A DNA stretch of 64,000 nt from a virus, in IMG/VR virus record IMGVR_UViG_3300010399_000004, positions 23,740 through 87,739 of that record, one strand, 5' to 3'. The notes beneath the pieces were generated by a model that made no database searches, had not been told where the DNA came from, and was given only the letters and a program-made list of their open reading frames with translations. Shown here in pieces: positions 1,815 to 60,963 of the stretch (position 1 is its first letter; every line of letters begins with the position of its first letter). A program made the translations under genes and the position numbers.

Positions 1815-2444
1815 ATGAAACAGTTCAACCCACCTTCCCTTCCAGATATAGATGTTGACTGTCTGAAAATCATTGCCAAGCGGGGCAATCAGACTTTCCA
1901 TTCATATCTGGACGATAGAATGTTTAGCGTGGCCGCGGCCTGGAATATTATTCTCAATGCACCCCGCCGACCGCTTTGGGCGGATATTGAACCCCTCCTT
2001 CCCGTTCTGCTGGAAGCGGACATTGACCGGGAGTATGCGGAAAATGAATTGCATCCCGGTATGGATACGGTTCCTGCTCTGGTGTATTTGGAAAAGAATG
2101 GGGAGGATCGCATCATTATTCTGGATGGCTGGCATCGTGTGTGGAATTGGTATAAACGGGGCGAGGATTGCTTACCCTGCTTTGTTTTGGAGCCGGGGGA
2201 AGCCGATGCTGCGGAGATTACAAGAGAACAGGGTGTAGCTCTTTGTTTGCCTTACCAGAAGGACTCAGAGACTCGTAATCATATGTCTCGTATCGTTTCT
2301 CGTAAGCTCAAAGCCGACCGCAGCGCGATTCATGAAATTATTTGCGGCGTTTTGGATGGGCAGGGAATATCCTGGGCAGCTACTACTGCAATCCGGAGAG
2401 GTATTGATCCCTATGCTTTGATTAATACATTGGCAAGCATCTAA
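1815..2444 (+). CDS. ParB/Srx-like N-terminal domain protein
   Basis: IILDGWHRV motif. Confidence 0.55.
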   Translation: MKQFNPPSLPDIDVDCLKIIAKRGNQTFHSYLDDRMFSVAAAWNIILNAPRRPLWADIEPLLPVLLEADIDREYAENELHPGMDTVPALVYLEKNGEDRIIILDGWHRVWNWYKRGEDCLPCFVLEPGEADAAEITREQGVALCLPYQKDSETRNHMSRIVSRKLKADRSAIHEIICGVLDGQGISWAATTAIRRGIDPYALINTLASI

Positions 2445-2450
2445 ATTTTT

Positions 2451-2843
2451 ATGGCTGATATACCTGAACTCTACCGCCGAATGGCGGAGTTAACTCTGTC
2501 GCACTGTCTCAAGTGCCCCACTAGATGCGCAACCAAGTGTTGCGATCCTGACTACTGTGCAATGGTGCCCAAGATAGCCAATGAGCGGGGGGAGCCAGTG
2601 CCCGCTACTACAGGACACTCCACGTTGCCATATATGGGGCCGTCCGGTTGCGTAGCTCCCCCACACCTGCGCCCCCTTTGCACTCTGCATTTGTGCGATA
2701 TCAACAGCGTGGGCTTTATTCGTAAACCAGCAGACAAAACGGGCCGAAAGGGGCCGGTGGACCTTGATGCCACTAACGATTACTTTGCACTTCGAGAAGA
2801 AATCAATGACGCAGAGTGCGCTAATGTGGAAAATATTATCTAA
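2451..2843 (+). CDS. Cys-rich hypothetical protein (possible CxxCxxCC Fe-S/Zn family)
   Basis: CxxC...C..CC...C and RPLC pattern. Confidence 0.55.
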   Translation: MADIPELYRRMAELTLSHCLKCPTRCATKCCDPDYCAMVPKIANERGEPVPATTGHSTLPYMGPSGCVAPPHLRPLCTLHLCDINSVGFIRKPADKTGRKGPVDLDATNDYFALREEINDAECANVENII

Positions 2844-2853
2844 GTTAAATATC

Positions 2854-3285
2854 ATGAAAATCGAATCCATTTGGTTCAAACCTTCGTTCAATATTTCTTT
2901 TTCGGGGGAGGAGTTGCGGGTAATGATTCACGTTGCGAGTAATCATTACGATGGCACATGCCGCCGGACTGTTATGGAAGAATGGCCGGATGCGTTTTTA
3001 TTGCAAGCTCAGAAAGCAGAGCAAAAGTTTCCTGGTGTGTCTTGTTCTTATTCCTGGAGAGACCTAGATTTGTTGGCCAAGATTCTTACAATTATAAATC
3101 ATGGATGCTTGGAAAGTGAAGCGGACCGTAGACTGGCGGGAGAGCTTTATGCTAAGATCAGCGGATTGATTCGGGAGCACAAAGTCATATCCGCTGAGGA
3201 TTTGAAAAGTTTTCAAATCAAAGCAATAAGGGGAACTCAGAACCCCGCCGAGGCTATACATATAATCAAAGGATTGAATCCATGA
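2854..3285 (+). CDS. Hypothetical protein
   Basis: ORF in operon. Confidence 0.55.
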   Translation: MKIESIWFKPSFNISFSGEELRVMIHVASNHYDGTCRRTVMEEWPDAFLLQAQKAEQKFPGVSCSYSWRDLDLLAKILTIINHGCLESEADRRLAGELYAKISGLIREHKVISAEDLKSFQIKAIRGTQNPAEAIHIIKGLNP

Positions 3286-3818
3286 CTGAGCCAGAAGTAA
3301 GAGAACGATTACTGGCCGCTCGCCGGGCAGAACTTGAAAAGGCTGCTATCGCTTACGAGTTTCACGCTGCTTCTATTGACCGGGGAAAGCATTCCGTAAT
3401 ACTGGAGAAGCTTTTGGCCACGGCCTACGAATATGGGGCAGCGTATAGAACCCGATTGGGGACTCCGTGCGATAACTGTCCGTGGGTTAGCGAGGTGGGA
3501 AGGAAGGTATTTAATAAGGAGGTAAAGGAAGCGGCGCGGCGGGGGGATGACTTTGTATGCCAGGGGCAAATGACAAGATGCTGGGGGGCTTTCCTATATG
3601 GCTTGGAATTACCTGCCCCCGCTTCCAAAGGTATGAGCATACTGGACCTGGCCGGGGCCGCAGAGGCTATAGGCGCAGCGCATGGGGACTTGGAAGTAGA
3701 ATGCCGGGGAAGTGATGGAGAACCGGCCCCTCTTCTGGATATAAGAGCGGAGCGTAGAAAGGACGGGAAGAAGGGTGCAAAGGTTGTTTTGTTCCTGGAT
3801 AGCGAATTGCCCGATTAA
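3282..3818 (+). CDS. Hypothetical protein with PCxxCPW...FxC motif (DUF6283-like)
   Basis: PCDNCPW and FVC; similar motif in the 61959 ORF. Confidence 0.55.
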   Translation: MTEPEVRERLLAARRAELEKAAIAYEFHAASIDRGKHSVILEKLLATAYEYGAAYRTRLGTPCDNCPWVSEVGRKVFNKEVKEAARRGDDFVCQGQMTRCWGAFLYGLELPAPASKGMSILDLAGAAEAIGAAHGDLEVECRGSDGEPAPLLDIRAERRKDGKKGAKVVLFLDSELPD

Positions 3819-7921: not shown

Positions 7922-8596
7922 ATGTCGGACCGCTCTACAGAACGCATAGTGCCTCAAAGAAGATCGCAGCCCGCGGTCTGCCCCCCGCCTTCTGTTCCGG
8001 GGGGAGCATCCAAACGAATTATTGACGGCACTCCGGGGGGAGAAAAGAAAAAATCCGAGGGAGCGTTGCGTATAATAGCCGCAGAGAAGCAGTTTCTTTT
8101 AAAGACTCTGCGCAGCAGTTTGGGAAATATTTCTCTGGCTTGTTTGAAAGCCAATATTTCGCGGACAAAGTTTACCCGATATGTCGATGAAGACCCGGCA
8201 TTTGCGGAGGGGGTAATTGAAGTTAAAGAAATGGCGGTGGATTTTGCAGAGGGGTGTTTATTTAAGCAAATGCGTAACGGCTCCACTGCCGCAGCTATCT
8301 TCTATCTCAAGACGCAAGGGCGGCACCGGGGCTACATAGAGAGGATTCGACATGAGCTTCCGGACGCTCCGGATGTATCCGCACCGATCACTGCGCAATC
8401 TATTGAAGAGGAAGTTCCGGATGAGAGCATGGATGAAATCTTTGATGTAATTGCCGAGGGAGTAGCGGCGCAAAAACGATTCATCGAAAAACGTAAAGCG
8501 GATGCCCTGAGGGCCGCGGCAGAGAAAGCAAAAGCCATGCCCCCTTCCGGACCAAGACTAATAACGGTCAAATCAAAAGCGGGGGTTGGGGGATGA
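7922..8596 (+). CDS. terS: Terminase small subunit
   Basis: HTH GNISLACLKANISRTKF, AAIFYLKTQGRHRGYIER; directly upstream of TerL. Confidence 0.8.
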   Translation: MSDRSTERIVPQRRSQPAVCPPPSVPGGASKRIIDGTPGGEKKKSEGALRIIAAEKQFLLKTLRSSLGNISLACLKANISRTKFTRYVDEDPAFAEGVIEVKEMAVDFAEGCLFKQMRNGSTAAAIFYLKTQGRHRGYIERIRHELPDAPDVSAPITAQSIEEEVPDESMDEIFDVIAEGVAAQKRFIEKRKADALRAAAEKAKAMPPSGPRLITVKSKAGVGG

Positions 8597-10992
8597 ATCC
8601 TGCACACAGGCAGAAATTTGCTCTGCTTATCAAGAAGGCCAGGAAAAGTTTCCTGGCTTATTTGATGTTATTCAACAATCCGAAGACTTCTCAAATCAAG
8701 ATGGGGAAGTTGCACAAGTTTCTGGCTGATCTTGTGCAGGGGGTAGTTGATGGGACATATGGAGCCTATCAAGCAGTTTCAATCCCCCCGCAGCACGGTA
8801 AGGCTCTGCACGATGATACTTTGATTCCTACCCCGGACGGGTTTAAAAAAATTGCGGACCTTGAAGTAGGGGATCGGGTATTCACCCAGGATGGTTCTGT
8901 GACTTCTGTTTTATGCGTGAAACACTGGAAGCGCAGACCGATCTACAAACTGACAATGGATGACGGAACGTTTGTGAAGGCGGATGGCGAGCATTTGTGG
9001 TCAGTCCGTATGTGTCGAAAGCGGAAAACAACACACACGCTCTGGACCACTGAACGGCTTAGCAAAAGAACGTCCAGCCGCTCCCCCGCCCTTCCTGAGT
9101 CTGGAGCTTTGGTGTTGCCGGAAAAGCCTTTTGTGGTGGCTCCTTATGTGCTTGGCTGCTGGCTTGGGGATGGAAACTCTAATGGAAACTTATTCACGGC
9201 AACAGAGGAGGATCAAGAGCATTATGCTCAAAGGTTCTCTGCGATGGGATTTCCGGTAAGCAGAACAGCCTACGCGATGCGGTTTCGTTTGCAGGCTTCT
9301 TGGTATATTCGATGGCTGAAAGACTCTGGATTGCATGAAAACAAGCACATCCCAGAGAGATATATGAGGGGAAGCGCGGAGCAGAGGAGGGAACTGCTGA
9401 AAGGCCTAATTGACACTGACGGCTATGTTTCGTCTGATGGACAGGTTGAATTCTGCAATGTAAACTATCGCCTCGCCTGCGATGTTCGGCGATTAGTCCA
9501 TTCGCTTGGAATCAAGGCGGCCATGTCCGAAGGGCGGGCAACTATAAATGGAGTTGACTGTGGTCCAAAATACCGAATCTTATTTTATGCAGACAGAGTA
9601 GCCTCTCTTCCACGAAAAGTAGCCAGACTCCGCAATCCGCAGAAACGATGTCGTTACATAGAAAAAGTTGAACGATGCGGAACGGGCAATACTACCTGCA
9701 TCCAAGTAAATCATCCATCGGGTATGTTCCTTTGCGGGGAGGCTTGCATACCCACCCACAACAGCCTTATGCTGGCGGTTGAGACTGTTTCCTGGCTAAT
9801 GGGGCATTCTCCGGGAATCAGCATCGCTATCGCTGGACATAGGCATGATTTGATGACTGAGTTTTCTCAGCAGGTAAAAGCGAGGATAAGTAATCCTTTA
9901 TATGCTTTAGTGTTTCCTAAAGCGGGGGAGATTATTCGGGGTAGGGATAAAGCGGATTCGTGGATGCTTGGCAATAGGTCAACCTTGAGGGCAAAATCGG
10001 TAGGAAGTAAATTGACAGGGAACCGGGTGGACTGGCTTATTATTGACGATGCCCATGCAGGCCGGGCGGAAGCAGAAAGCGAGACTCAGCGAAATAGAGT
10101 GCATCAGTGGTATTTCGGAGATTGCGTTACTCGTTTGTCTCCGGGGGCTAAAGTATTCATCATTGGGACGCGTTGGCATCCAAAGGATTTGATAGGACAT
10201 TTAACTAGCAAGGAGTATGTTGATACGCTCAAAGCAGAAGGGCAGGAAGAGCGTATATTTGAAGTAACTAATCTCCCTGCCTTTGCGGGAGAAAATGATC
10301 CTTTAGGAAGAGAATCGGGGGAAGCGCTATTTCCGGAAGTTCGTAATGCTGCCTGGCTCATGGGGGTTAAAGCGTCTATCCCTTCTTACGAATGGGATTC
10401 TCAATACATGGGCAACCCCCGTTCTATTGCGGAGGGGCAGGCAGATATTAGCCGGCTTAGAAGAATTCCTATGGATCGTGTCCCTATCCATATTCCCAGA
10501 TTGCGGGGGTGGGACCTTGCTCTTACAGAGAAGAAAACATCGGACTATTCAGTAGGATCGCTTTGCGCATGGGATGCAGACAAAGAAGAGTTTTATATAC
10601 TTAACATGTTCCGGGTAAAACTGGCTTGGCCAAAGCTTGAGCCCCGTCTTCTTGCTTTATCTCTAAGGGATAAGCTGGAATGGAATTGTAACAAGATGGC
10701 TATGGAAGCCGTAAGTGGATTTGAAATTGGATTACAAAACATTCGCAAGGCTTTATCCGGTCAGGTAAAAGTGGTAAAAAGAAATCCAGGGGTCGGAGGG
10801 AAACTGATGCGGGCGCAGGGGTGGTTGAATGTTTTGGAAAAGGGCAGAATGTTTATGGTTGAAGGTCCCTGGAATAAGGATTTCTTAGATGAGCTTCTTG
10901 ATTTCCCTAACGGAAAAAATGATGATATTGAGGATTCGGTTAGTGTCGCATGGGAAGAGTTGACTTCCCCGCAGAAACTTCTATATGGTTAA
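8593..10992 (+). CDS. terL: Terminase large subunit, intein-containing
   Basis: PPQHGK[intein]S Walker A, LIIDD Walker B, GTRWH, WDLA and DDIEDS nuclease motifs. Confidence 0.95.
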   Translation: MNPAHRQKFALLIKKARKSFLAYLMLFNNPKTSQIKMGKLHKFLADLVQGVVDGTYGAYQAVSIPPQHGKALHDDTLIPTPDGFKKIADLEVGDRVFTQDGSVTSVLCVKHWKRRPIYKLTMDDGTFVKADGEHLWSVRMCRKRKTTHTLWTTERLSKRTSSRSPALPESGALVLPEKPFVVAPYVLGCWLGDGNSNGNLFTATEEDQEHYAQRFSAMGFPVSRTAYAMRFRLQASWYIRWLKDSGLHENKHIPERYMRGSAEQRRELLKGLIDTDGYVSSDGQVEFCNVNYRLACDVRRLVHSLGIKAAMSEGRATINGVDCGPKYRILFYADRVASLPRKVARLRNPQKRCRYIEKVERCGTGNTTCIQVNHPSGMFLCGEACIPTHNSLMLAVETVSWLMGHSPGISIAIAGHRHDLMTEFSQQVKARISNPLYALVFPKAGEIIRGRDKADSWMLGNRSTLRAKSVGSKLTGNRVDWLIIDDAHAGRAEAESETQRNRVHQWYFGDCVTRLSPGAKVFIIGTRWHPKDLIGHLTSKEYVDTLKAEGQEERIFEVTNLPAFAGENDPLGRESGEALFPEVRNAAWLMGVKASIPSYEWDSQYMGNPRSIAEGQADISRLRRIPMDRVPIHIPRLRGWDLALTEKKTSDYSVGSLCAWDADKEEFYILNMFRVKLAWPKLEPRLLALSLRDKLEWNCNKMAMEAVSGFEIGLQNIRKALSGQVKVVKRNPGVGGKLMRAQGWLNVLEKGRMFMVEGPWNKDFLDELLDFPNGKNDDIEDSVSVAWEELTSPQKLLYG
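8803..9762 (+). mobile_element. Class 3 intein with LAGLIDADG endonuclease in TerL Walker A
   Basis: Begins Ala (ALHDDT), ends THN/S; W-C-T triplet (EHLW, TTCIQV, PTHN); LGCWLGDG and LKGLIDTDG motifs. Confidence 0.92.
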
Positions 10993-23648: not shown

Positions 23649-23817
23649 ATTGTATTGGAATATAAAAAGGATAAAAAGGATTTGAAAACTTTTCAAATCG
23701 TGGTGTTGTAGGCGCGTCGGCCAGCTTCATGCAAAACAGAAACCGCCAGTGGGAGTAATGCCAGCCTGTCTGCCCGCCTTCCCAATAAACAACCAAAACA
23801 CAATCATACGTAACTAA

Positions 23818-57297: not shown

Positions 57298-60200
57298 ATG
57301 AGCGTTATATATTCAACGGGTAATCTTAGGAATCCAAAGGTTGTAGTTGTCTGCGATATTCCAACGGTCAAGGCTTATGCCGCGGGCCATGCAATGTCAG
57401 TGGCCTGCATGGATAAGTTCCGGGAGGAAGCGGAGCGGAGTGGATTCGTGAAGGATGACTTTGCATTCGTTATTCCGGCCCCGCCGATGTCAGAGCACGA
57501 TGCAACTTCGGAAGCACGGACTAATGCATTCCTGGATGGCCACCGGCCGCTATTTATGGCTACGCTGAATGGGCTCCTTTCTAAAGGTCCGGCCCTGTTG
57601 ATGTATTGCGGGAAGCACGCGGGGAGGCAGGTAATGGGCAAGACAATCCAGATAACAAAAAAGCGGGGGCAGATTCATAATGAAGAAGGATTCAACATCC
57701 CCGTCCTTCCTATGTTATCGCCGGGGAATGTTCTGCGCCGTCCCGAGGTTGCAGAAACCTTTGAGACGGATTTCCGGCTGGCGGGAGCATTTAAGGAAGC
57801 GGGATGGAGTCTCCGGGGCTACAGCAACAGCAGATTGCGGGGGGAGTATAAATGGTGCCTTGATTTAGAGGAAGAGATTGATTTAGATAATCCTCCCGAA
57901 GCTATAGCTTTGGATGTTGAAACAAAGGGATTGAAGTGGTATGATCCTTCCTTCCGGGTTTTGACTATACAACTTTCCTGGGCTCACGGACAGGGAATCA
58001 TTCTGCCGATAGATATCAATTATTTCAACGATGATTCGTTGCGGGGGGTTTCTACTATCGGTATGCCAAAGATAGGCAGGAGGGACCGGGAACGAATGCT
58101 AAAACAAGTGCGCAGATTATTGGCAGATAAAAGAGTAAAGGTATGCGGCGCGAACCTCAAGTTTGATCTTCATGCATTGAAAAACCTGGATATTGAAGTT
58201 GCTTGTTGGCAGCATGATACTGTTCAATTGGCTTTCGTCTGTGACGATAACATGCAGCAGAAAGCTTTGTCCGAATGCGTTAGGCGATGGATACCCAGCA
58301 TGGCCGGATATAGTGATAATTTTGATAGGGAAATTGACAAGTCCATGATGGATAAAGTTCCTCATGACAAGATGCTCCCATACGCAGCCGGCGATACGGA
58401 CGTAGCGCGGAGGTTGACTTTGATACTTGTAAAGCTGGCAAAAGAGGACCCGCAGAATTATCGCTGCTATACAAGGATTCAGATGCCGGCCCTTCGACAA
58501 TTCTTTAGAATAGAGCGGGAGGGATTATATACCGATCAACCTGATTTGCTGACGCTTGGGAATGTAATTGGAGAACAGATAGAGGAAATCAACAATGCTC
58601 TATTGAATACCGGAAGGTTGAATGAGGATGGAACGGTTCTATATGCTCCTGTGTCAGCCAAAGTAAAAAGGAGGCAATTGGAATTGACCGAAAATAAACT
58701 TGATCCGGAGGATGCTTTGAGTTTTACGCGGGCGGATTTCATTATTGATGTTTTATTCTCCCCAAAGCGGGAAGGGGGTCGGGGGCACGTTCCGGTTGTA
58801 TTCACAGACACGACCGCGGCCCTTGATCCATCGGAACGGGTCCCTTCCACTTCTGCCAAACACCATCTTATCTATTTTGATGAAGACCCATTTGTAGGAG
58901 ACTTAACGGATTTGATCCGTCTCCGTAAGCTGCAATCTACTTATGTAGGATTGCCGGAAGGATATGAATATCGCCCGGTTAAGTTATTGAAGAATGGAAA
59001 GTTTCAGAAAGCTGCGCAGGATATTATAACGGCTAAGGAATTGAATGTAACCTATCAGGAAGCTCCGGGGGGAGAACCGGAAGCGGAGCACATGGCTTTC
59101 GATGTAAAGGAAAACGTGGCTTTCGTTCTTGATCTTCATGGAAGACCGCTATGGAGAGATTACCGCCCCCCTTCTGGATTCTGGCAGCATTTGGCCCCGG
59201 ATTCAAAGATTCACCCTGGATTCTATCTGGACAGAACTGTCACTGGAAGATCCGCTAGTAAAGATCCTAACGGACAGAACATACCAAAGCGCGGTAGGAC
59301 TCCTAGACTTAAAATCTTGGTATCATCATATAGGAAAATATTCAAAGCAAGGCCGGGGTGGATATTGCTGGAAGTGGATTTAAGTCAGGCGGAGCTTAGA
59401 CTAGTTGCATGGATGGCCAGAGAAAGAACTATGCTCAAGGTTTATAAGGATGGGGGGGATATTCATGCTACAACTGCTGCCAATGCATTAAAGATTACTA
59501 TGGCACAGTTCAATGCCTTATCTAAGGATGATCGCTTTATGTATCGCTATCACTCTAAGGCTAGGAACTTTGGTCTATGCATAGCTGAGGGGCAGAGTGT
59601 TCTTACTCAAGTAGGAGAAATACCTATTGAAAAAGTTAAGGATTGGCATTTATTATGGGATGGACAAGAATGGATCAAACACGAAGGAGTCATATTCAAA
59701 GGTTATAAGAAGGTCATTACCTGGGACGGAGTTACTGCTACCCCAGACCATAAAGTCTGGGCAGAGGAAGGGAGGATGCTTTCCCTGCGGGAAGCTTCAT
59801 CCGAAGTATGTCCCCTTGCAAGAACGGCGACGGCAGATGGCATCCCTGTCCGTTGGAACGCTGACTTTAAGACTGAGAACTTTGAAAAGGGAAGGAAGCT
59901 ATTGGGTAATAAATGGAAAATGCAAAGCTTGTGGAAACGTATGGGTGTTGTCTTGCAACAATCTATATTCAGGAAAAACAAAAAATTGTCGTTGTCAGAG
60001 GCACAGGAAATATCCACAGGACGGGAGAGCGGAAACTCTCGGGCAAAGATACGATTCTATGATTCAGCGTTGCAGACGGGATACGCACGTATCGTCTCAC
60101 AATTACAAAGGGAGAGGGATAAAAGTATTGTTCGAGAGCAGAGAGGATTTCATATGGTGGGCATTAAAGAAGTTCCCGGAGACAGATTTCAAGGGGTTGG

Positions 60201-60963
60201 ACTTCGACAGGGAGAACAACGATGGTCATTATTCCAAGGAGAATCTCAGGCTAGTTACTCGGAAGGAAAATCTAGCGAATACACGACCAAGGAAGAAGCG
60301 GGAGCGGTGCGCGTTTACGATATAATTAACGCTGGCCCCAGAAGGCGATTTACATGTCAGGGTAGGTTAGTATCCAATTGTTACGGAATGTGGTGGAAAT
60401 CCTATCGCACATATGCAAGGACTGACTACGGTATTCATATATCAGAATCTCAGGCTAAACAAGAATGGGATGATTTCTTTGAGCTTTACAGCGATCTTCC
60501 CCGGTGGCACACAAAGATGAAAAACATTGCTAAACAGCATGGATTTGTGCGGGCATTGCACGGGGCTTTGCGCCGCCTTCCCGCGATTAATTCTAACGAT
60601 GAAAAGGTGCAGAGGGATGCGGAACGTATGGCAATCAACAGCCCCATCCAGCGCTTTGCTTCGGACCTTGGATTGATGGGAATGAGCATATTTGCAGAGC
60701 ACTGCCCCTGGGAGATTATGCACCCGCTGGGATTCATTCACGACGCCACGGTAATCGAAGCGCGGGAGGAGTATGCAGACGAAGCGATGGGGGCGATGAA
60801 ATGGATTTTGGAAAACCTCCCCCTTCTGGAGTGGTTTGACCTTGACCCCCCGCTTCCGATTCTGGCGGATGTATCCTGTGGCCCATCCCTCGGGGAGTTG
60901 GAGGAACGTCCTGATATTCAGGCAGTTCGGCCGGAGTGGCTGCCGGAAAATTGGAAGGTTTGA
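57298..60963 (+). CDS. polA: Family A DNA polymerase with N-terminal UDG-like domain, 3'-5' exonuclease and intein
   Basis: ALDVET, NLKFD, YAAGD exo; TVTGR.S..PNGQNIP, DLSQAELR, K.RNFG[intein]YG, IHD. Confidence 0.95.
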   Translation: MSVIYSTGNLRNPKVVVVCDIPTVKAYAAGHAMSVACMDKFREEAERSGFVKDDFAFVIPAPPMSEHDATSEARTNAFLDGHRPLFMATLNGLLSKGPALLMYCGKHAGRQVMGKTIQITKKRGQIHNEEGFNIPVLPMLSPGNVLRRPEVAETFETDFRLAGAFKEAGWSLRGYSNSRLRGEYKWCLDLEEEIDLDNPPEAIALDVETKGLKWYDPSFRVLTIQLSWAHGQGIILPIDINYFNDDSLRGVSTIGMPKIGRRDRERMLKQVRRLLADKRVKVCGANLKFDLHALKNLDIEVACWQHDTVQLAFVCDDNMQQKALSECVRRWIPSMAGYSDNFDREIDKSMMDKVPHDKMLPYAAGDTDVARRLTLILVKLAKEDPQNYRCYTRIQMPALRQFFRIEREGLYTDQPDLLTLGNVIGEQIEEINNALLNTGRLNEDGTVLYAPVSAKVKRRQLELTENKLDPEDALSFTRADFIIDVLFSPKREGGRGHVPVVFTDTTAALDPSERVPSTSAKHHLIYFDEDPFVGDLTDLIRLRKLQSTYVGLPEGYEYRPVKLLKNGKFQKAAQDIITAKELNVTYQEAPGGEPEAEHMAFDVKENVAFVLDLHGRPLWRDYRPPSGFWQHLAPDSKIHPGFYLDRTVTGRSASKDPNGQNIPKRGRTPRLKILVSSYRKIFKARPGWILLEVDLSQAELRLVAWMARERTMLKVYKDGGDIHATTAANALKITMAQFNALSKDDRFMYRYHSKARNFGLCIAEGQSVLTQVGEIPIEKVKDWHLLWDGQEWIKHEGVIFKGYKKVITWDGVTATPDHKVWAEEGRMLSLREASSEVCPLARTATADGIPVRWNADFKTENFEKGRKLLGNKWKMQSLWKRMGVVLQQSIFRKNKKLSLSEAQEISTGRESGNSRAKIRFYDSALQTGYARIVSQLQRERDKSIVREQRGFHMVGIKEVPGDRFQGVGLRQGEQRWSLFQGESQASYSEGKSSEYTTKEEAGAVRVYDIINAGPRRRFTCQGRLVSNCYGMWWKSYRTYARTDYGIHISESQAKQEWDDFFELYSDLPRWHTKMKNIAKQHGFVRALHGALRRLPAINSNDEKVQRDAERMAINSPIQRFASDLGLMGMSIFAEHCPWEIMHPLGFIHDATVIEAREEYADEAMGAMKWILENLPLLEWFDLDPPLPILADVSCGPSLGELEERPDIQAVRPEWLPENWKV
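59578..60378 (+). mobile_element. Intein in PolA motif B
   Basis: NFGL/CIAEG...ATPDH...VYDIINAG..VSN/CYG. Confidence 0.9.
59837..60325 (+). CDS. HNH endonuclease in an alternative frame inside the intein
   Basis: CKACG..NNL.SG.TKNCRC, Y.SM.QRC, NYKGRGI.V, DREN.DGHY..EN.R.VT..EN..N. Confidence 0.85.
   Translation: MASLSVGTLTLRLRTLKREGSYWVINGKCKACGNVWVLSCNNLYSGKTKNCRCQRHRKYPQDGRAETLGQRYDSMIQRCRRDTHVSSHNYKGRGIKVLFESREDFIWWALKKFPETDFKGLDFDRENNDGHYSKENLRLVTRKENLANTRPRKKRERCAFTI

Follow-up and report, generated by a model that had tools for sequence, protein, structure and literature searches.

We analyzed a 64,000-nt stretch of viral DNA (hereafter the window), which covers positions 23,740 to 87,739 of IMG/VR record IMGVR_UViG_3300010399_000004; the source is a complete 87.7-kb virus record with terminal repeats, of which the window is a part. 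The family A DNA polymerase gene of the window (57298–60963, plus strand, as are all features of the window described here) is interrupted by an intein (59578–60378), and a nuclease open reading frame (ORF) is nested within this intein in the +1 frame (59837–60325). We consider it likely that this is a non-canonical intein, in which splicing halves encoded in the host frame (59578 to about 59853 and about 60307 to 60378) surround a separate +1 nuclease gene made from an internal start. The same layout is common to dozens of related inteins at several insertion sites.

Under this reading, the full-length mRNA read in frame 0 would yield the polymerase precursor, from which the intein, linker included, would leave by self-splicing. 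Ribosomes would also start independently at ATG 59837 and produce a free nuclease. This nuclease would cut intein-less polymerase alleles near motif B, and repair would copy the intein into the cut allele (homing). Selection on the essential polymerase would meanwhile purge nuclease codon choices that create stops in frame 0.

The polymerase intein and the nuclease ORF in its +1 frame

The polymerase gene encodes a 1221-codon precursor, intein included. Pfam DNA_pol_A matches this ORF in two separate stretches around the insert (E 4e-43), and DNA_pol_A_exo1, the 3′-5′ exonuclease domain, matches at E 4e-13. The intein is flanked by ...YHSKARNFGL upstream and CYGMWWKSY... downstream. Excision of the insert joins NFGL to CYGM and restores the host motif, which we take to be polymerase motif B; one relative, L004, has its intein at the same site. 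Translation of 59578–60378 gives 267 stop-free residues that start with CIAEG, contain TPDH and VYDIIN, and end in LVSN followed by Cys. The junctions, read by sequence, agree with the original prediction, made from the letters of this DNA alone, of an open 267-codon intein frame with intact splicing blocks (CIAEG, TPDH, VYDI, SN/C).

The N-terminal splicing domain (59578–59853) comprises Cys1, the block B TPDH (59740–59751), and conserved strands to approximately residue 92. It coincides with conserved columns 1–100 in an alignment of 18 homologous inteins, and residues 24–79 match phrog_26005 (E 5e-12). The block A Cys (59578–59580) and the block B residues T55 and H58 are invariant in this alignment. 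The C-terminal splicing domain (60307–60378), assigned from its sequence and from the alignment of homologous inteins, holds blocks F and G: RVYDIINAGPRRRFTCQGRLVSN. It is followed by the Cys +1 of the C-extein (60379–60381), the splicing nucleophile in our reading of the sequence, which replaces what is presumably the Leu of the motif B consensus NFGxLYG. A profile of the 18 inteins matched the PI-MtuI RecA mini-intein over block B and the next strands (E 1.6e-4) and gave weak matches to the DnaB and DnaX mini-inteins (E 0.36–0.38). Because the polymerase is essential and its motif B is interrupted, we infer that the intein splices itself out of the polymerase precursor.

Between the two domains, the intein linker (59854–60306) is free of stops in the polymerase frame and is not conserved as protein. 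Its best Pfam match in that frame is HTH_38 at E 0.17, and PHROG matches to the intein are confined to residues 11–79, consistent with the earlier claim that the middle of the intein frame holds no endonuclease motif. The 18-intein alignment shows no conserved linker columns beyond shadows of nuclease motifs. Together with the recoding results below, this alignment points to a linker that is the shadow of the nuclease gene.

The +1 frame over the same DNA is stop-free from 59615, 74 codons ahead of ATG 59837, to a TAA that ends at 60325. From the ATG, the ORF runs for 162 codons to this stop (60323–60325), giving a 489-nt ORF over which both frames are open, close to the 490 nt of dual-coding DNA proposed originally. 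The stop codon falls within the codons for Ile249 and Ile250 of the intein, at a homologous place in APSE-1 and L004. The 162-residue product carries a CxxC...CxC zinc motif, and the ORF contains the motifs CKACG..SGKTKNCRC, SMIQRC, NYKGRGI, and DRENNDGHYSKENLRLVTRKEN. Five PHROG families named ‘HNH endonuclease’ match the product, with phrog_374 the strongest of those we list (E 7.3e-26), followed by phrog_3377 (E 2e-16) and phrog_2081 (E 5e-12); phrog_8790, ‘restriction endonuclease,’ also matches. An alignment of 19 nested members has 14 invariant residues, each of which the window retains (C29, C32, C51, C53, R78, C79, N89, Y90, R93, G94, I95, R125, Y132, and N136). The nuclease-like ORF is present as a single copy in the whole virus record.

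Stops in the +1 frame occur at 43 of 759 codons in the N-extein and 5 of 194 in the C-extein, compared with 0 of 162 in the overlap. Over the nuclease ORF, the third frame has 11 stops in 162 codons and the polymerase frame has none. When the nuclease protein was held fixed and its codons were redrawn from the phage’s own usage, the polymerase frame acquired a mean of 13.7 stops (minimum 2), and a stop-free version never arose in 100,000 recodings. When the synonymous codons already present were instead permuted across their positions, the mean was 10.4 stops, again with no stop-free sequence (0/20,000). Both frames are open far beyond chance. Because no recoding or shuffle stayed stop-free, the codon choice of the nuclease is fitted to keep the polymerase readable, as had been predicted of a host frame maintained by an essential gene.

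Related loci and frame-specific conservation

In a tblastn search, the +1 product matched 245 of 50,697 phage records, all at less than 60% identity. The longest matches (12 records with at least 80% query cover) lie inside DNA polymerase genes; these polymerase-gene matches come from Gardnerella phage vB_Gva_AB1 and APSE-1, -2, -3, -4, -5, and -7. For APSE-1 and the Gardnerella phage, the match is likewise in +1 relative to the annotated polymerase coding sequence, and the homologous inteins occupy other sites (YGGKS/CLAKG...IVHN/CEN in APSE-1 and AELA/CIAEG...LVHN/CGYGG in the Gardnerella phage).

We then classed nuclease loci by their three forward frames in a wider survey of 161 loci in total. 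Phage records and IMG/VR yielded 82 loci (L001–L082), with 22 in +1 of ORFs of 443–1576 aa, one in +2 (L046), and the rest free-standing. Bacterial and archaeal genomes yielded 79 loci: 37 in +1 of a long ORF, 3 in +2, 38 free-standing, and one in-frame fusion (L109), in which an unrelated C-terminal region follows the nuclease and intein blocks were not seen. Across the survey, 59/161 loci lie in +1 of a long polymerase-like ORF and 4/161 in +2. None of the 161 has the nuclease in frame within an intein, which fits the predicted out-of-frame arrangement. Nearly all nested loci share one intein family (CIAEG.LVLTD.GLVPIE..VWDG.EWV..G....ATPDH ... VYDI.NAGP.HRFTVSG.LVHN/C), inserted in about six contexts. 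The 22 nested phage and viral loci have no stops in the frame used by the polymerase; in the viral set, all 44 unique free-standing homologues have stops in that frame (mean 11.2 per 100 codons, minimum 1.3).

Frame-specific substitution counts came from the close pair L020 and L026, which have 140 differences over 2817 polymerase positions. In the exteins, 78 of the 86 differences are silent in the polymerase frame and 5 are silent in +1, with 76 at polymerase position 3. In the 471-nt overlap, 5 of the 37 differences are silent in the polymerase frame and 30 are silent in +1, with 28 at polymerase position 1, which is nuclease position 3. The +1 product is under purifying selection in this pair, with constraint relaxed on the linker in the polymerase frame. 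Five APSE records show six differences in the overlap, four of them at polymerase position 1.

The relatives of the window itself are too distant for substitution counts, so its own lineage was judged by protein conservation. Against L004, which occupies the same NFGL site, identity is 57.6% in the nuclease frame, 27.3% in the linker frame, and 30.3% in the non-coding third frame; against L003, the respective values are 51.3%, 19.5%, and 22.1%. Nucleotide identity between the window and L004 is 55/74/38% by nuclease codon position. As judged from these identities, it is the nuclease frame and not the linker frame that is conserved as protein. Residual similarity in the linker (e.g., QELRRARD) reflects, in our reading, nuclease motifs such as NYGGRGI read out of frame.

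Several related loci depart from the common layout. L040 (2296–3612), one of the 22 nested loci, has other sequence in place of the N-terminal intein half. Its nuclease frame continues upstream into an unrelated ORF, and its polymerase frame does not open before 2847; either the locus is rearranged or the contig is a chimera. The +2 cases (L046, L145, L152, and L158) have sister-type inteins (CL[AG]SDT / CLAEGT ... GPVV[AV]HN/C) with a homologous nuclease. L003 (3001–4074), the second-closest relative of the window, has a +1 ORF of approximately 357–409 codons that consists of the nuclease and a long repeat-like, helix-turn-helix-like tail. Its host frame is open for 1576 codons, which makes approximately 1.1–1.2 kb dual-coding.

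Probable function and expression of the nuclease

The original prediction described a full HNH nuclease in the +1 frame. The ORF, the quoted motifs, and the phrog_374 match hold up, but the canonical catalytic His is missing: the product has D124-R125 where HNH enzymes have D-H, and this Arg is invariant in all 19 aligned members. Tyr132, also invariant among the 19, aligns with the PacI Tyr of G-Y-S-P. N136 never varies, N148 is conserved to 90% or more, and both align with Asn residues in PacI and I-HmuI. When the 19 nested nucleases were combined into a profile, it gave a weak match to PacI (PDB 3ldy; E 0.0026) in two short stretches, the alignment spanning the zinc motif and the D-R...G-Y-x-P-x-N-x-R-L core; against the HNH homing enzyme I-HmuI (1u3e), the same profile gave E 0.09.

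PacI, placed in group 20 of the His-Me finger classification, is itself without a catalytic His, and a loop Tyr takes over its role, according to the available part of that classification (PMC5714182). On the strength of the weak profile matches and the motif logic, we read the +1 product as a PacI-like, Tyr-type His-Me finger (HNH fold) nuclease with predicted zinc binding. The two proteins would share an N-terminal CxxC...CxC, a D-R-x-D/N...G-Y-x-P-x-N-x-R-L core, and a Tyr in place of His. They differ in setting: PacI is a free cellular restriction enzyme, not one encoded by a mobile-element gene.

The +1 product could be real without being a homing enzyme. It might bind or nick DNA in phage–phage competition or regulation, or it might be a catalytically dead fold. 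The D-R motif in place of D-H would be compatible with this, as would the setting of the nearest free-standing relatives (L089, L090, and L091), which lie beside polymerase fragments and unrelated genes, outside inteins. The protein of the window also lacks the C-terminal helix-turn-helix-like extension found in 12 of the 19 aligned members. However, PacI is an active nuclease with the same D-R...G-Y..N arrangement and Tyr for His, as far as the available part of the classification describes it (PMC5714182), and the Tyr and both Asn residues are invariant or nearly so in the nested family. Short forms are under purifying selection (L020/L026), and the nuclease has accompanied the intein into six or more insertion contexts, as expected for a homing enzyme. 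We regard a role other than homing as unlikely.

Alternatively, the +1 frame in this phage could be an untranslated, decaying relic, with selection acting on the polymerase frame only. No ribosome-binding motif stands in the G+C-rich sequence before ATG 59837, and the lineage of the window has no relative close enough for a ratio of nonsynonymous to synonymous substitution (dN/dS). Yet the 162-codon ORF is intact, compared with 5.7 +1-frame stops per 100 extein codons, and it keeps every family-invariant residue. The codon-position identities to L004 follow a coding-frame pattern, and relatives are under direct purifying selection in the +1 frame. We therefore find a relic quite unlikely.

As to how the product is made, the original prediction allowed for either an internal start or frameshifting, and of these two the internal start fits better. 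Of 55 unique nested loci, 50 have an ATG, GTG, or TTG 18–40 codons ahead of the zinc motif; the ATG of the window is at −28, and in the largest nested clade an ATG recurs at −30 or a GTG at −29. The starts of free-standing homologues fall no more than a few codons away from the aligned start of the nested nucleases. In APSE-1-type members, a +1-frame stop lies 5–7 codons upstream of the aligned start. Fusion by a frameshift further upstream is therefore impossible in these members, and independent initiation is the sole route common to the family. Judged by these start and stop positions, an independent internal start is the most likely expression route.

A programmed +1 (or −2) frameshift inside the intein would instead produce a fusion of the N-extein, the N-terminal intein half, and the nuclease. 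The 74 open +1 codons ahead of ATG 59837 would accommodate such a fusion, and many relatives are open for 40–60 codons upstream of the nuclease N-terminus. The stop in APSE-1-type members, the canonical start codon at the homologous N-terminus in most nested loci, and the matching starts of the free-standing homologues all argue against it. Further, no shared slippery site was evident in the aligned upstream regions, which were inspected by eye without a dedicated scan. We judge frameshifting to be very unlikely.

Two candidate starts upstream of the usual position deserve mention. TTG 59627 would open a 232-codon +1 ORF with AGGAG 9 nt upstream (59613–59629), and AGGAG before TTG is rare in this phage. 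We set this start aside as coincidental because its 70 extra codons are unmatched in free-standing homologues and the AGGAG is made by the intein’s Val-Gly-Glu codons. In the AELA/CIAEG clade (L002, L018, L019, L020, L026, L096–L131, and others), a +1-frame ATG lies 67 codons before the zinc motif. It is created by conserved Tyr-(Asp/Glu/Gly)-Gly codons before block B, and the last +1 stop is usually 1–2 codons upstream. L020 and L026, which have no canonical start at the usual N-terminus, may use this ATG at −67.

An artefact, in which two compensating sequencing or assembly indels displaced an in-frame nuclease, is untenable even for a metagenome assembly of one soil sample, because the +1 layout recurs in 59 other loci, drawn from isolate, prophage, and metagenome sequences (five APSE records deposited separately among them), the codon choice is tuned to keep frame 0 open, and an independent Logan contig of the run (soil-metagenome DNA, probably the source of the record), checked as contigs and not raw reads, covers 59300–60700 whole at depth 11 with 0 differences and 0 gaps and thus without the indels that had been named as a possible objection.

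Several results weigh against a non-canonical intein with a separately started nuclease. The identity of the nuclease comes from PHROG family names and weak profile matches, and the canonical catalytic His is absent. Pfam HNH_3 scores 13.3 bits on the +1 product, under the cut-off of 24.8, and reaches E 0.002 in only 1 of the 19 nested members; NCBIfam returned nothing for the product. On the intein side, the penultimate residue is Ser (LVSN, then Cys) and not His. Some inteins have no penultimate His, and within the alignment Ser also occurs in L004, L005, and L037, with His in the other 14 of 18. No Pfam intein or Hint model matched any of the 18 inteins at E≤0.01, and NCBIfam gave no intein model match.

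The remaining points concern expression and the distance of the relatives. The 25 nt before ATG 59837 contain no Shine-Dalgarno-like motif. A promoter scan of the region found three sites compared with 2.3 expected by chance and no terminator, and RNA structure around the start codon gave no signal (z 0.06). Among public runs, the stretch was found in one DNA run and no RNA run. The best relatives of the nuclease are at 51–58% aa identity, with none closer found: blastn against phage records gave no match, and a scan of metagenome contigs gave one weak partial match (L088). As noted above, this distance leaves the lineage of the window to be judged by protein conservation. The missing Shine-Dalgarno motif is itself uninformative, because 20 of 23 phage ORFs of at least 250 aa are also without one (3/23 have a motif of at least 4 nt), and most leaders are A/T-rich. 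This suggests that the host initiates without Shine-Dalgarno pairing.

If the non-canonical intein is as we describe, its consequences reach annotation as well as evolution. Gene callers drop fully nested ORFs, so that the homing nucleases of a large phage and prophage polymerase intein family would be missed in annotation, and the inteins are classed as mini-inteins or listed with an ‘unknown’ middle. The overlap would also be a case of dual coding under opposing constraints, in which one frame is selected for its protein and the other only for the absence of stops, with codon choice visibly dictated.

Comparable systems and the possible origin of the nested nuclease

Inteins with an out-of-frame endonuclease are already published as a kind, and the window adds a member, not a new principle. 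Its distinguishing points are the PacI-like HNH family, the +1 frame, and the family A polymerase host. The family adds an HNH case to the few published examples and bears on whether intein endonucleases arose when free-standing genes invaded mini-inteins.

In 1998, Gorbalenya proposed an out-of-frame endonuclease for the Synechocystis dnaX intein, as reported in a preprint by Phillips, DeSimone, and Gogarten (bioRxiv 10.64898/2026.09.14.751524). The available portion of this preprint describes a LAGLIDADG enzyme in a +2 ORF with frame-specific omega values. By that account, the cyanobacterial dnaX intein and the intein of the window share host-frame splicing halves, an endonuclease ORF in another frame, frame-specific purifying selection, and an essential replication gene as host. 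In both, the stretch between the halves is unconserved in the host frame; that of the dnaX intein has low predicted confidence in the models of the preprint. The dnaX case involves LAGLIDADG, the +2 frame, and a cellular gene, whereas the window has a PacI-like HNH nuclease, the +1 frame, and a phage family A polymerase. Unlike the dnaX intein as described there, the intein family of the window occupies several insertion sites.

Non-canonical inteins of actinobacteriophages have been read as free-standing endonuclease genes invading an intein (Gosselin, Arsenault, and Gogarten, bioRxiv 10.1101/2025.01.02.630785). In the available text of that preprint, the out-of-frame case is endonuclease VII-like and in frame 3, and the actinobacteriophage HNH inteins are in frame; the same text, supplements aside, contains no out-of-frame HNH in a family A polymerase that we could find. 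A hidden out-of-frame HNH has also been described as the ShiLan domain of a mycobacteriophage DNA methylase (Arsenault, Gosselin, and Gogarten, Genes 2025, PMC11855218). According to the part of the article available, ShiLan and the window share an out-of-frame HNH in a stop-free host frame, a stop at the 3′ edge of the insert, and no detectable ribosome-binding site; the mode of translation of ShiLan is left there as a question. Splicing domains are absent from ShiLan, which remains part of the host protein, whereas intein blocks flank the nuclease gene of the window.

The closest annotated parallel is APSE-1, where GenBank NC_000935 places the ‘HNH endonuclease’ P46 inside the DNA polymerase P45. 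As in the window, a homologous intein carries a homologous nuclease in the +1 frame, with the stop at the same place in block F. APSE-1 differs in its polymerase insertion site (YGGKS/C...HN/CEN) and in having the C-terminal extension that is missing in the window. For P46, GenBank gives an internal ATG as the start (locus position 2861), although the nuclease homology, zinc motif included, already sets in 76 codons earlier, at a GTG. The upstream GTG start of APSE-1 (L001: 2633–3283) is preceded by AAGGG. The homology suggests that the P46 annotation is probably truncated. Our literature search found no paper linking the APSE-1 intein to its out-of-frame nuclease.

In a quick maximum-likelihood tree of 68 nucleases, the +1-nested members split into a group of 17 (SH-aLRT 91) and a group of 6 (SH-aLRT 99), both placed among free-standing genes, and the window groups with L004 and L003 (98). 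A single clade of all 23 nested members is not rejected by the approximately unbiased (AU) test (p 0.169). In free-standing genes, the frame used by the polymerase is richer in stops than the other alternative frame (11.2 vs 4.6 per 100 codons), and this stop-richer relative frame is the one used in 59 of 63 nested cases. Use of the stop-richer frame would be more in keeping with a small number of captures and later spread than with many separate invasions.

The nearest free-standing relatives of the window’s nuclease, L089, L090, and L091 (51%, 41%, and 38% identity), are located in bacterial chromosomes or metagenome-assembled genomes (MAGs), the hosts being Micavibrio, a Pseudomonadota MAG, and Rhizomicrobium, respectively. 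Each (L089: 2531–3495; L090: 141–1459; L091: about 2400–3654) immediately follows a short piece of a polymerase gene that breaks off at motif B or close to it, and L089 adjoins a tRNA and an integrase. The downstream polymerase half was not found at these three loci. A group I intron around the free-standing relatives L089–L092 was considered and rejected, as Rfam gave only tRNAs. By their position, the L089–L091 cassettes appear at least to tie the nuclease lineage to polymerase motif B DNA.

We tentatively raise the possibility that the +1-nested PacI-like PolA-type inteins are one old and widespread lineage, in which a free-standing homing gene was captured once by a mini-intein and the layout was then kept while the element moved among six or more sites in polymerases of phages whose hosts span many bacterial phyla. 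In this scenario, the nuclease would recognize motif B-type DNA and would also move without the intein, which would explain the free-standing relatives that follow motif B fragments. If true, these loci would provide a natural series for the ‘splicing first, endonuclease invades later’ model of intein origin, and their enzyme would be the first Tyr-type His-Me finger nuclease associated with an intein.

The original prediction had also set the polymerase intein apart from other inteins in the window with an in-frame endonuclease, and the terminase intein is indeed of this kind. The terminase large subunit gene (Terminase_6C, 8593–10992) carries an intein with a LAGLIDADG endonuclease in frame, matched by LAGLIDADG_3 (E 8e-8), Hom_end (E 4e-5), and Hint_2 (E 7e-5). 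In an AAA ATPase gene (40961–43441), Pfam Intein_splicing matches residues 314–572 at E 1.6e-8 and 35.0 bits, against a cut-off of 35.8.

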